From: Schmidtea polychroa
Taxonomy: Eukaryota
Length of the DNA: 64,000 nucleotides
Reading direction: 5' to 3'
Assembly (NCBI GenBank): GCA_044892525.1
Contig: CM097885.1
Coordinates: 204,600,001-204,664,000, forward strand
Numbering within the stretch: the first letter of the stretch is position 1; every line of letters starts with the position of its first letter. This document shows, one piece after another, positions 29,849-33,620 of the stretch. Made by a program: the position numbers and the translations under genes. Under the pieces are notes generated by a model, which worked only from the letters and a program-made list of their open reading frames with translations, had not been told where the DNA came from and made no database searches.

Positions 29849-32356
29849 CGAACCCCATGGGAAAGGATGTGGAATGCGGAAAACAAAGAATGGGAAATCA
29901 GGAAAGGGATTTTCGTAGAAACAGACATTGGTGAGACAGAAAGTGAATCAGAAGAAGAGGAAGATGAACCTCCAAAATACGAAAAGGACGAAATAGAATC
30001 GATATCGGACGACGAAAGCGAAACGGATGTTACGTCAGAAAGTGAAACCGAAATCAGGCATATTCATGCGATGAGAAAGAAGGAACGCGAGTACGCCGAC
30101 ATAGACGGTGAAGAGGCAAAAGAAGCGAGAGATCGAGAAGAAAGAGAAAGATACAAACAACTAAGCGACATCTTAGAGACTGGGACAAAGAATCAAAAAA
30201 GGCAAACGATAGCACTAGCCAATTTCATCCTAAAAATATCGGACAATATCCAGTATCTGAGAGAGATAGTAAAGACTATAGAGGAATACCGACAATACAA
30301 CGAATGGTACCCGGAACAATTGGAACAAATCATTGGGAAGTGGCGAAACCATGAATGGTCACAAGACACCCAAGAAAGATATCGAATTCGAATTAAATAC
30401 CCGGATAAAAATGTAGAGGAAGTAGAGGTACACCCAACCACAAAAATCAGAGAATTGAAAAAGAAACTAGCATACGAAACCCCATTCCATCTACAACTAC
30501 AAGGAAAATCATTAGATGACAATGTGGATGTCGGAATAACACCCATGAGATTAAGGGAGATCAATGTATTGACAATGGCAGAAACATTGGGAAAACCGAT
30601 TAAAAGGAAGAGCAAATCCAGTAAACCTACGAAAGGTAGCTTGAGTACACCAAGTCCTGCTAAAGCGCCAAGCAAATCAAACGAAACCGAGGAGATCGAG
30701 GAGATCATATTGGAAGACAGCGATGAAGGAGCTGGGGAAAGATCACCAATTCTGGTAAGATGGCCGACAGGGGCCGAAATATGGACAACAAGCCAACCAT
30801 CAACTAGCTATCAACAACCAAATAAGCTGAACATAGAGGAAATTGTCGATAATACGACAGAAACCGAAACTGACGAACAATTTCAACGACAAAAAGGACC
30901 AACGAAAGCAATACCAGAAGGTCAAACGGACAAAATAATAGACGAATGGAATGAGTGGCTGAGAAACAACGATAGCTCATTGCCAAGAACAGATAACGAG
31001 AGAAACCCGAATTATGAAACGACAAGAGAAGCTGGAACAATGATGGAGAAACGGGCAAAAGGAAGACCCAAGAAGCAAGGAGAAAAACCAGAATTTAAAA
31101 CCAGAGAACAGTTGAAACAGGAACAAGGACAAGTCAGATTAGAGAAATTGGATAAAATAGTATGGGACCTAAAAGAAGCTCAACCAACAATCGAGAGAGG
31201 TGAAAAATGGATACGAGAGCTAGTAAAGGATATGTTAATAATAACAAACCCGCAATTGAGACGGTTATGGCAACGAAAAGTAGCAAGCGTAGATGCCAGA
31301 CAGCTATGGAATACAATATCCGGAATAATTCCGAAATTAATCAAAGAGAAGACAAAAACCACTAAAACCGATTGGGAAGAGACAAGAAGAGTAATTGAAC
31401 AATTAACTTTAAACGCAAACGACGACGAACATCATTTAGTAGTATTAACGTATCTAATGTACAATTTGATGGGATTAGCAGCAAGAAAAATACCTAACAA
31501 ACAATTCGCAAATCATGTAGAAATGACCGTTACAATCATTGAAAATACAATCGAACCACATATTATCCGTGCCGGTGGGTGGAAAAGACTCATACAAGCG
31601 CCACGAAAAAACGAGCAAGAGAGATCAATGCAAATTCGGTTGAAGAAATTGCTAAACGAGCTGGAATGGGAATTGCCATTGAAAGACCCAGCCAGCAGAA
31701 AAGCGTCGATTAATTCACTAATGATGACCATGATGATATGGATGCTCTGCACCAGTGGAGCAGCTGGATTTACAATTTACGACTGTGACAATTCGATAAT
31801 AGGAGAAAGATACTCCCTGAGAGATATAGAGGAATGTAGACAGGCATCTCCGAATAAATTAGATATAGTAAAAAAGAAAGTCTCCTATCACGTATACCAA
31901 GAATCAGATTTCATTAGAACGCAAGCTAGAGAATGCGTAGTATCGAAGAAAGTATTGGCATATTACTGTGGACAATACTCATATTCAACCCTCATATTAC
32001 CTGGATTAGATAAAGAAATAGTACCTATACAACGGGAAGACTGTAAAGAGCTTTTTAGAACCGGAGCGATGAGAATCAGGGATGGAGTAACAATACACGG
32101 ACAAAGCGGAATGATCAAGACGGAAAGTATCTATGTAACCGGACGAGTAAAATCAACTGATGGATCATGTAACGGAGGCACATATACGATCAGAGGAGAG
32201 GTGATATCGGGAGTAGTAGTAATTGAGTCCTACACAGTAGAATTGAAGGAATATGAAGCACAATTCGACGCAAACAACTATCAAATGAAAACCAACCCAG
32301 CATGCAGAGCTACGGAAAACGTGTGTAGAACGGGAATTTCGACTATAATATATTAA
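29849..32356 (+). CDS. Polyprotein segment 2: Ubl domain, Bcl-2-like domain, signal peptide and N-terminal half of the glycoprotein
   Basis: Same frame as segments 1 and 3. IRIKYPDKNVEEVEVHPTTKIRELKKKL...LQGKSLDD; IENTIEPHIIRAGGW; hydrophobic LMMTMMIWMLCTSGAAG then FTIYDC. Confidence 0.8.
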   Translation, partial: RTPWERMWNAENKEWEIRKGIFVETDIGETESESEEEEDEPPKYEKDEIESISDDESETDVTSESETEIRHIHAMRKKEREYADIDGEEAKEARDREERERYKQLSDILETGTKNQKRQTIALANFILKISDNIQYLREIVKTIEEYRQYNEWYPEQLEQIIGKWRNHEWSQDTQERYRIRIKYPDKNVEEVEVHPTTKIRELKKKLAYETPFHLQLQGKSLDDNVDVGITPMRLREINVLTMAETLGKPIKRKSKSSKPTKGSLSTPSPAKAPSKSNETEEIEEIILEDSDEGAGERSPILVRWPTGAEIWTTSQPSTSYQQPNKLNIEEIVDNTTETETDEQFQRQKGPTKAIPEGQTDKIIDEWNEWLRNNDSSLPRTDNERNPNYETTREAGTMMEKRAKGRPKKQGEKPEFKTREQLKQEQGQVRLEKLDKIVWDLKEAQPTIERGEKWIRELVKDMLIITNPQLRRLWQRKVASVDARQLWNTISGIIPKLIKEKTKTTKTDWEETRRVIEQLTLNANDDEHHLVVLTYLMYNLMGLAARKIPNKQFANHVEMTVTIIENTIEPHIIRAGGWKRLIQAPRKNEQERSMQIRLKKLLNELEWELPLKDPASRKASINSLMMTMMIWMLCTSGAAGFTIYDCDNSIIGERYSLRDIEECRQASPNKLDIVKKKVSYHVYQESDFIRTQARECVVSKKVLAYYCGQYSYSTLILPGLDKEIVPIQREDCKELFRTGAMRIRDGVTIHGQSGMIKTESIYVTGRVKSTDGSCNGGTYTIRGEVISGVVVIESYTVELKEYEAQFDANNYQMKTNPACRATENVCRTGISTIIY

Positions 32357-33620
32357 GCTAACACCCAAAAATGCCGACTCCAATTGTTAAAAAGTGCTCT
32401 ATTCAATGAAGTAAAAGGAGAAATTTACGAAAACGAAGATGACGATGAAGAGAATGGAAACGTAAGGATGCGAAATGGGAAACCAGTTCCACCATCCCCC
32501 AAAGAAAAGAGACTCACAACACAAAAAACACCAACGGCATTAATTACAGATGATCCAGATATCGGTATGAGATTCATCAGAGAAAAAGAGACCACCAAAT
32601 GTGACAGCATAGTATATCGGACGAACTACGCAGGTATCTACATGTCAAGGCAAGTAATAGACCGAGCAGTGGGAAAGGTATCAACAGAGGACGTAAAATT
32701 GTACCTGTACGCCAATAACAAAATGGACTTTTTATTTCATCGAGGACAAACGACAATGCAAAAAGTATACTACGATCTTATACAAAATGACTGTTCATTG
32801 AATAAAGAGATACTAAAAACAAAATTAGCCATCGCAATAACACACCCAGATAACACAATGCCATCACTCCCGTTACCGGATGGACATTTTGGTAGAATGG
32901 TGGGAGAGGTAATGTATACATATGCATGTACCAAGACGTTTGCGCAACTGCCAAGAAAACCCACAATTCCACCAGGGAAATGCGCAAACGAGTTGGAAAT
33001 TAGTTACAAAGGGCAAAACAGATTCGTTCAACCCGTCACTAGAATTATGAACCCAATTGGATTTTATCCGAACACCTTTAACTGTTCAAATGCATACGGA
33101 CCGTTATATGAAAAACCCGATGGGAAATGGATAATGTTACCGGTAAAAACCGAAGTACAAGAGCCTAAAAAGTTTGGATTAATAGAACTCGCAACAGAGC
33201 AAGATTTCAAACCAATTGATGTGTCAAAAGCAGGTATGTACTCAGCAGAGGATTTAGAAACAGCACGACTAAACGTACTATTCCCAGCAAGGCGAGAATC
33301 CATTCTATCAAATATGGTTACCATAACTGGGGGAACGAATTTCCAATCAGGTCCCAATTACGAACTATTATTGTCACCCGATCATTTTCAACAAGCCACG
33401 TCAAACATGATGAAAGCAATGTGGGGAAGATTTCTAGTGTTCGGTCAAATGATGGCAGGAATATTGGGAATCATCTTAATTATTCAGATTGTCAGAGTAA
33501 TATTGACTCAAATGTTAGCGTGTTTTGATATCTATAAGAGAGAAAAGAAAGTAAATTGGAAGTTGATAGTAGGTTTTCTACCATTTTTGGCAAAAACAAT
33601 GGTGTTGCACGGTCATTCTA
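31712..33620 (+). other. env: Env-like class III fusion glycoprotein domain (chuvirus G-like), split by TAA at 32354
   Basis: Cys pattern YDC...SL..IEEC...EC.V...YYCG..S.S...C....TG...G.C.GG.Y, then YAC...CANELEISY.G..RFV.P.TRI...C...Y...G.W, GMYS..DL...LFP, and TM WGRFLVFGQMMAGILGIILII. Confidence 0.75.

Follow-up and report, generated by a model that had tools for sequence, protein, structure and literature searches.

A 64,000-nucleotide stretch of DNA from Schmidtea polychroa (i.e. positions 204,600,001 to 204,664,000 of contig CM097885.1, assembly GCA_044892525.1; hereafter the window) contains a giant Gypsy retrotransposon whose polyprotein includes a predicted class III viral glycoprotein. 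Sequence comparison and structure prediction identify this copy as a decayed member of an active Burro-type family with a predicted class III envelope. Intact copies are likely to use the predicted glycoprotein of the gag-env-pol polyprotein as the envelope fusogen of particles passing between cells, and the gene is likely to have entered this lineage once, independently of the Anakin elements. The element class has already been published, as the in-frame Burro env (PMC6431247) and as Gypsy elements of GAG-ENV-POL order with an envelope of the herpesvirus glycoprotein B (gB) type (PMC13524379). The window copy adds quantitative evidence that selection on the envelope matches that on pol in strength, a class III assignment of Burro env, a proposed membrane topology linking Gag, Env and Pol, and a candidate partner protein. 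Should intact copies produce fusogenic particles, the genome's most abundant repeats would in effect be endogenous retroviruses carrying a non-retroviral envelope, able to pass between somatic cells and stem or germ cells.

The glycoprotein and its place in the polyprotein

A single reading frame of 4,700 codons (26591..40690, + strand, as are all features of the element) is broken by premature stops at 29846-29848, 32354-32356 and 40688-40690. A Pfam search gave the domain order gag, CCHC knuckles, Monjiviricetes_fusion, protease (PR), RT (reverse transcriptase), RNase H (RH), integrase (IN) and ankyrins. Gag (27065..27820) consists of a capsid-type domain (PF03732, E 4.7e-10) and CCHC knuckles (PF00098, E 1.6e-12), three of which were counted by reading the translation. 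Pol (34091..36922) has the Gypsy order, beginning with an aspartyl protease whose DTG lies at 34133 and continuing with RT, RNase H and integrase (PF00077, PF00078, PF17917, PF17921 and PF00665), bearing out the Gypsy-type integrase motifs recognized in an earlier note on this DNA, and is followed by ankyrin repeats (best Pfam stretch 37841..38065; PF12796, E 2.6e-17). The glycoprotein is thus an in-frame part of a gag-env-pol polyprotein, placed between gag and protease, and not a separate env gene. Two of the stops are peculiar to the window copy: the TAA at 32354-32356, which interrupts the glycoprotein ectodomain, was found in this copy alone among 30 examined, and the stop at 40688 in this copy alone among 23 readable copies of 30 fetched. 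Two to five aspartyl-protease-like motifs, some after the integrase, were observed in six relatives (i.e. P0005, P0007, P0165, P0224, P0225 and P0234).

The glycoprotein matched the Monjiviricetes_fusion family (PF24664) at E 6.5e-73, with 246 bits against a cut-off of 27 bits, which is far above chance. A signal-peptide-like stretch at 31718..31768 (Kyte-Doolittle score, KD11, 2.05) was present in all 18 retroelement relatives covering the region. The earlier note had correctly placed a signal peptide here; since the domain shares one reading frame with gag and pol, the signal is internal. The ectodomain (31769..33424), assigned as a class III (gB-type) fusion ectodomain from Pfam and the predicted structure, has one N-glycosylation sequon and 14 cysteines, each conserved in no fewer than 20 of the 21 retroelement rows and 80 of the 86 virus-like ones, in agreement with the Cys-rich ectodomain described earlier. 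A transmembrane (TM) helix and a second, weaker hydrophobic helix (33449..33607) were located by hydropathy, conservation and the model, as that description had also held: the first spans 33449-33505 (KD19 2.53) and the second 33551-33607 (KD19 1.41, with Lys and Pro). By hydropathy and conservation, the signal, ectodomain and C-terminal anchor of a type I membrane protein are all present. Two conserved hairpin regions, considered as putative fusion loops, aligned with chuvirus glycoprotein (G), the first containing Tyr residues and the second being polar.

A variable loop of low model confidence (32423..32524) is an insertion that characterizes the retroelement clade, with a C220-C296 spacing of 77 residues as against a virus-like median of 49. 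The low-complexity loop ending in KEKR that the earlier note reported does lie here, with KEKR at 32501-32512 in an acidic/basic context, but its standing as a key feature is not supported: the motif occurs in the loop of only one of 16 retroelement glycoproteins and does not fit R-X-K/R-R, and a furin site was rejected as a family trait.

A model of the glycoprotein was made with AlphaFold from an alignment of 112 rows, drawn from 150 sequence matches with weaker rows and the longest left out for size. Mean confidence was high (predicted local distance difference test, pLDDT, 87.9) and a central helix of 48 residues was predicted (residues 329-376, nucleotides 32699-32842). All listed matches of the model in the PDB were herpes gB, the best at E 5.1e-14; VIA-align gave Z 11.2 for herpes gB (root-mean-square deviation 7.6 over 418 aligned residues) and Z 6.7 for rabies G. 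Among predicted viral structures, the glycoproteins of chu-, qin- and xinmoviruses led, at E 1e-38 to 1e-29. By sequence, a PDB search with the single protein gave no match at E 10, and a PDB profile search gave weak gB matches only (best E 0.029). On the model and the Pfam match, the glycoprotein is assigned a class III (gB-type) fold and membership of the PF24664 family. The structural comparison proposed in the earlier note therefore returned a class III match, not the absence of one, and both the class III fusogen and the likeness to chuvirus G put forward there are upheld, the latter as homology supported by PF24664, the HMMER matches and the viral fold matches. The same gB match has been reported for a ctenophore chuvirus G in a preprint (10.64898/2026.08.30.748148).

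A class I reading was dropped, as no gypsy-Env or Baculo_F match was found by Pfam at E 0.01; an ESM Atlas search with relative P0003 gave Baculo_F-bearing clusters at scores of 0.75-0.76, under the usable level. A scan of viral contigs gave 21 pattern matches and no relatives. Four loci from a metagenome scan, none of which had element domains, were taken as chance.

Origin of the glycoprotein and related elements

A HMMER search of 1.84 billion proteins gave 1,021 matches at E 0.001, of which the best 150 were analysed. These fell into an upper tier of long polyproteins or fragments with 27-47% identity and a lower tier of stand-alone proteins of ~650 aa with about 21-29% identity; among 20 lower-tier clusters looked up, four carried chuvirus names, one was a beetle gene and the others were hypothetical or without a name. 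One glycoprotein-bearing Gypsy polyprotein (P0009, HBK71150.1) is filed under a Flavobacteriaceae metagenome-assembled genome, most likely animal contamination. In predicted protein P0115 a chuvirus-like glycoprotein is fused with immunoglobulin domains, and in P0064 a Gypsy-type RNase H comes after it.

An unrooted glycoprotein tree was built from 43 rows; 45 had been chosen from 109, and the sister position of P0112 and P0140 was flagged as a long-branch join, so these two were left out. The 15 Gypsy-type glycoproteins formed one side of a branch with 100/100 support, with 28 virus-like and BEL/Pao rows, including four named chuviruses, on the other. No nesting of the Gypsy-type proteins among the named chuvirus glycoproteins was found in this unrooted tree with its four named chuviruses, and two BEL/Pao-linked glycoproteins sat among the virus-like rows. 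Forcing the Gypsy glycoproteins into one clade with these two BEL/Pao-linked proteins was rejected by the approximately unbiased (AU) test (p-AU 2e-78), which upholds the independence from BEL/Pao glycoproteins proposed earlier. An unrooted tree of RT-RNase H was also built, from 57 rows; all 13 elements that bear the glycoprotein fell within one 19-row clade (SH-aLRT, the Shimodaira-Hasegawa-like approximate likelihood ratio test, 88), and a first split of P0014+P0018 was common to both trees. The glycoprotein clade, the RT clade and this shared first split support a single, old acquisition of the glycoprotein by the sampled Gypsy clade, independently of the BEL/Pao lineage.

A recent capture of a chuvirus glycoprotein by this element alone would account for named chuviruses being the best named matches in both sequence and fold. 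However, identity to chuviruses is ~20-27% as against 27-47% to Gypsy polyproteins of the same layout, two more families in the same genome carry the domain at 36-38%, the Gypsy clade lies outside the sampled chuvirus proteins and the first split is the same in the tree of RT as in that of the glycoprotein. Such a recent capture is highly improbable and largely refuted. The earlier note's suggestion of a capture specific to this element likewise finds no support, as the same domain occupies the same position across a divergent Gypsy clade (27-47% identity). Its donor from the chuvirus lineage is not borne out either: the glycoprotein tree it had proposed separates the Gypsy proteins from BEL/Pao but places them outside the sampled chuvirus-like proteins, and an unrooted tree indicates neither donor nor direction. 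A different origin, in which the glycoprotein is an ancient retroelement gene that came from an older common source or was exchanged in the reverse direction, and not from a negative-strand RNA virus, is possible although doubtful. It accords with the unrooted tree, in which the Gypsy clade and the virus-like set are equally deep, and with the argument of PMC13524379 that the gB-type env of Gypsy elements goes back to the Pre-Cambrian. Yet the closest proteins outside the clade are virus-like glycoproteins of ~650 aa that stand alone, herpes gB being much more remote (10% identity). This alternative bears on origin alone and can be combined with the mechanism proposed below for the fusogen.

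Among described systems, the closest is Burro/GYPSM1 of Schmidtea mediterranea (PMC6431247). As published, it shares with the window element a size of >30 kb, multi-kb LTRs (long terminal repeats), an ORF1 (open reading frame 1) of ~4,800 codons, three CCHC knuckles, an in-frame env between gag and protease, ankyrins and thousands of related copies, and Burro's Bcl-2-like segment has a weak, sub-threshold counterpart in the window element; judged against that published description, the size, LTRs, ORF1, CCHC, env and ankyrins of Burro are all present in the window element. The two differ in that MATH/TRAF is a separate downstream ORF in the window element and lies inside ORF1 in the description of Burro1, and in that the BIR domain described for Burro was not found by Pfam in the window element, including its RING ORF. 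In PMC6431247, Burro env is presented as the first known to lie in frame between gag and pol and is matched to arthropod and fish mononegavirus glycoproteins, yet it is linked to gypsy Env and likened to baculovirus/paramyxovirus-type proteins, whereas the predicted fold in the window is class III.

PMC13524379 describes gB-type env across Gypsy elements, with GAG-ENV-POL order in Nematoda, Bryozoa and Platyhelminthes. Its errantiviruses of the HSV/gB type (HSV, herpes simplex virus) from S. mediterranea (i.e. Smed_errantivirus_1-6) share with the window element the Gypsy pol, the gB-type env between gag and pol, a furin site that is not always conserved and many near-identical copies. The window family is absent from these six sequences, the nearest being Smed_errantivirus_5, roughly half identical by eye (uncomputed); a second family from the searched genome (G000, see below) equals Smed_errantivirus_2 across a 70-residue stretch, also by eye. 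No description of the polyprotein topology or of a second membrane protein was found in the examined text of that paper.

Anakin, a BEL/Pao element (PMC7642597; further background in PMC10084718 and PMC12440569), shares a PF24664 glycoprotein within an LTR retrotransposon. The window element falls outside Anakin, as its pol is of Gypsy type and a joint clade with the two BEL/Pao-linked proteins was rejected. In these two proteins, which made up the BEL/Pao sample and neither of which is named Anakin, the glycoprotein follows a DUF5641 integrase tail and is nested among arthropod chuvirus-like proteins. The earlier note had held that chuvirus-like glycoproteins are reported mainly in BEL/Pao elements. 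This is not supported by PMC13524379, where six S. mediterranea families are among the many Gypsy elements with gB-type env, or by PMC6431247, where in-frame Burro env with mononegavirus matches was described in 2019; the earlier view is explained by PMC10084718, in whose set no clear case of capture by Gypsy was found. Chuviridae/Xinmoviridae G and herpesvirus gB share with the window glycoprotein the cysteine frame, the predicted class III fold and a TM followed by a second hydrophobic helix. They are stand-alone genes, however, whereas the window glycoprotein is internal to a polyprotein and has a longer loop.

Selection, proposed function and a second membrane protein

Copies were sought in genome G000 (781 Mb) with the second half of the glycoprotein, and 99 of 2,354 candidates were scored. 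All 99 were 95-100% identical, and by count from the search table 39 kept a frame open over 4,700 codons or more. Two further families in this genome share the gag-glycoprotein-pol order at 36-38% glycoprotein identity (Pfam search); an ORF of 3,334 codons was found in one, and the other is ~14 kb long with LTRs of 0.8-0.9 kb; as these are smaller families with the same layout, the layout predates the giant size. Contigs of a run presumed to be RNA covered 30 of 30 bins, although the source may also be DNA.

The ratio of non-synonymous to synonymous divergence (dN/dS) of the ectodomain was 0.027 (dS 0.146) in comparison to the copy at G000:C1:81.7 Mb, for which RT, integrase and the ankyrin region gave 0.019, 0.015 and 0.13, respectively. 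A diverged copy at C1:107.97 Mb, selected by another domain and not by glycoprotein score, gave an ectodomain dN/dS of 0.037 (dS 1.18) and an RT value of 0.012. Shared variants among 30 copies numbered 113 synonymous and 3 non-synonymous (site ratio 3.7), and those in family 2 comprised 42 synonymous and 13 non-synonymous changes; synonymous sites were saturated between families 2 and 3, and that dN/dS comparison was set aside. The ectodomain is under strong purifying selection, with a dN/dS near that of RT. Compared with G000:C1:81.69-81.71 Mb, the window shows a synonymous divergence that varies between 0.15 and 0.42 over the length of the polyprotein and between 0.04 and 0.53 inside the second membrane protein described below; this unevenness suggests recombination between subfamilies.

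Flaviviruses and alphaviruses are well-established cases of polyproteins with internal signals, and a similar route can be proposed here. Gag would be synthesised in the cytosol, after which the internal signal would thread the ectodomain into the endoplasmic reticulum (ER) and signal peptidase would free its N-terminus. One TM would halt transfer, with the second hydrophobic helix lying along the membrane and PR-RT-RH-IN remaining cytosolic on the glycoprotein tail, a topology that is consistent only if the second stretch, which has a KD of 1.41 and contains Lys and Pro, does not span the bilayer. At the polyprotein end, a further signal and TM would yield a second surface protein. Gag, Env and Pol, made 1:1:1, would be gathered on one membrane and released by the protease as particles bud, and the trimeric glycoprotein would then fuse the particle with a target membrane, probably after endocytosis and without furin cleavage. 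The cell-to-cell or horizontal spread put forward in the earlier note is conjectural.

In-frame placement by itself tethers Pol to a membrane, and the glycoprotein might be kept for a role other than entry, such as ER anchoring of Gag/Pol for assembly within the same cell or receptor blocking against related viruses. The loops at the predicted fusion tips of this glycoprotein family have few aromatic residues, which would fit such a role. An anchor, however, would need the TM only, whereas the whole ectodomain and all 14 cysteines are kept with a dN/dS near that of RT, and a non-entry role is considered quite unlikely.

Several points weigh against a fusogen acquired once and used for transfer between cells. 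The alignment used for the model contained chuvirus-like proteins, which biases it towards their fold; topology was assigned from Kyte-Doolittle windows rather than a dedicated predictor; and the fusogen role rests on sequence and predicted structure. The 30 copies compared for shared variants had been chosen by their protein score, a choice that favours a low dN. Purifying selection indicates usefulness to the element without telling which use. Support for the RT clade is an SH-aLRT of only 88, and six of its 19 rows show no glycoprotein; the ORFs of these six start 108-608 residues before RT and the rows are likely truncated. Finally, GAG-ENV-POL elements are non-monophyletic across phyla in PMC13524379, and one capture therefore applies only to the clade sampled here.

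The second membrane-protein-like module (39770..40690) sits after the integrase and ankyrins at the end of the polyprotein, and comprises a signal-like stretch (39770-39826), a six-cysteine beta-rich domain, a charged stalk and a TM (40574-40630). With fixed hydropathy rules, a signal-plus-TM pair at this position was found in 12 of 15 clade members and none of 26 other Gypsy proteins, and in 6 of 9 rows when the count is limited to those whose frame also holds the glycoprotein. Rows required a tail of at least 250 residues (17 clade members and 89 others had an integrase match); the thresholds were set after viewing the sequences, the clade rows are mutually related and many controls are automatic gene models. 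Purifying selection on the module is weaker (dN/dS overall 0.09-0.19). No Pfam family was found for it, and comparison with the second modules of other families and subgroups gave no homology. Its model had a mean pLDDT of 52 and no Foldseek match at E 0.001, and the best structural Z of 6.5 came among many immunoglobulin (Ig)/fibronectin type III (FN3) sandwiches; an Ig/fibronectin-like sandwich is assigned with low confidence.

This second protein may serve in attachment, act as a decoy or be cargo of another kind. By analogy with herpes gD/gH, which serve gB, a two-part entry machine can be pictured, in which a conserved gB-type fusogen before pol would be joined by a swappable Ig/fibronectin-like attachment protein after the integrase that would set the target cells, perhaps stem cells; this picture is tentative and on the whole unlikely. 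A second membrane protein is not mentioned in the examined text of PMC6431247 or PMC13524379, whose figures and supplements may hold one, and it is apparently an unpublished addition and a candidate attachment partner of the fusogen. The entry mechanism of gB-bearing elements is described as unknown in PMC13524379, since herpes gB needs other glycoproteins, and a candidate partner makes this question testable.

Element boundaries, accessory genes and surrounding sequence

The whole element (19895..49978) spans 30,084 bp and is flanked on either side by a 4-bp target-site duplication, CTGG. Its LTRs of ~4 kb (5' LTR 19895..23958, 3' LTR 45912..49978) both have TG...CA ends and are 99.5% identical, with 18 mismatches and 3 gap bases across 4,067 positions; near-identical LTRs together with the CTGG duplication indicate a young insertion. 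The TG..CA LTRs, target-site duplication and PR-RT-RH-IN order are those of Ty3/Gypsy elements, and no BEL/Pao domains were found in a Pfam search of the element proteins. The 5' LTR contains a 253-codon ORF (22656-23417) of no known family. A primer-binding-site-like motif (23966..23983), presumably resembling tRNA-Pro, lies 7 nt downstream of the 5' LTR, and a 15-mer from it occurs 2,679 times in genome G000 (control 0).

An accessory ORF upstream of the polyprotein (24374..24871) ends in a C3HC4 RING finger (PF13920, E 1.3e-8). Directly upstream of the glycoprotein, a weak Bcl-2-like segment (31376..31582) matched PF00452 at E 0.027, below the cut-off, and searches of the PDB and ESM Atlas with this region gave no support. 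Downstream of the polyprotein are a separate TRAF-like ORF with RING, zinc fingers and MATH (41338..42777; PF22486, E 2.9e-25; PF00097, E 1.5e-4) and three more accessory ORFs (43056..45651), recognized from the ORF list and Pfam. The IAP-like (inhibitor-of-apoptosis-like) RING ORF and the complete TRAF-like ORF point to manipulation of ubiquitin/apoptosis signalling. The last accessory ORF (44977-45651), just before the 3' LTR, has a third signal-like and TM-like pair and belongs to no known family.

Inverted repeats of ~290 bp (83%) at 14264-14553 and 50272-50540 flank the whole element, and a DUF4371 transposase-like ORF (16725-18047) lies between them; the retrotransposon seems to have inserted into a hAT-like DNA transposon. 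On the - strand, 5720-12551 holds a degenerate LTR, probably a solo one, that belongs to a related family, with 73-78% identity to the element LTR over five blocks and 40 scored relatives in G000 at 80-100% identity. The window also contains a 14-bp tandem array at 610-1411 and a set of 70-430-bp direct repeats at 55251-58221.

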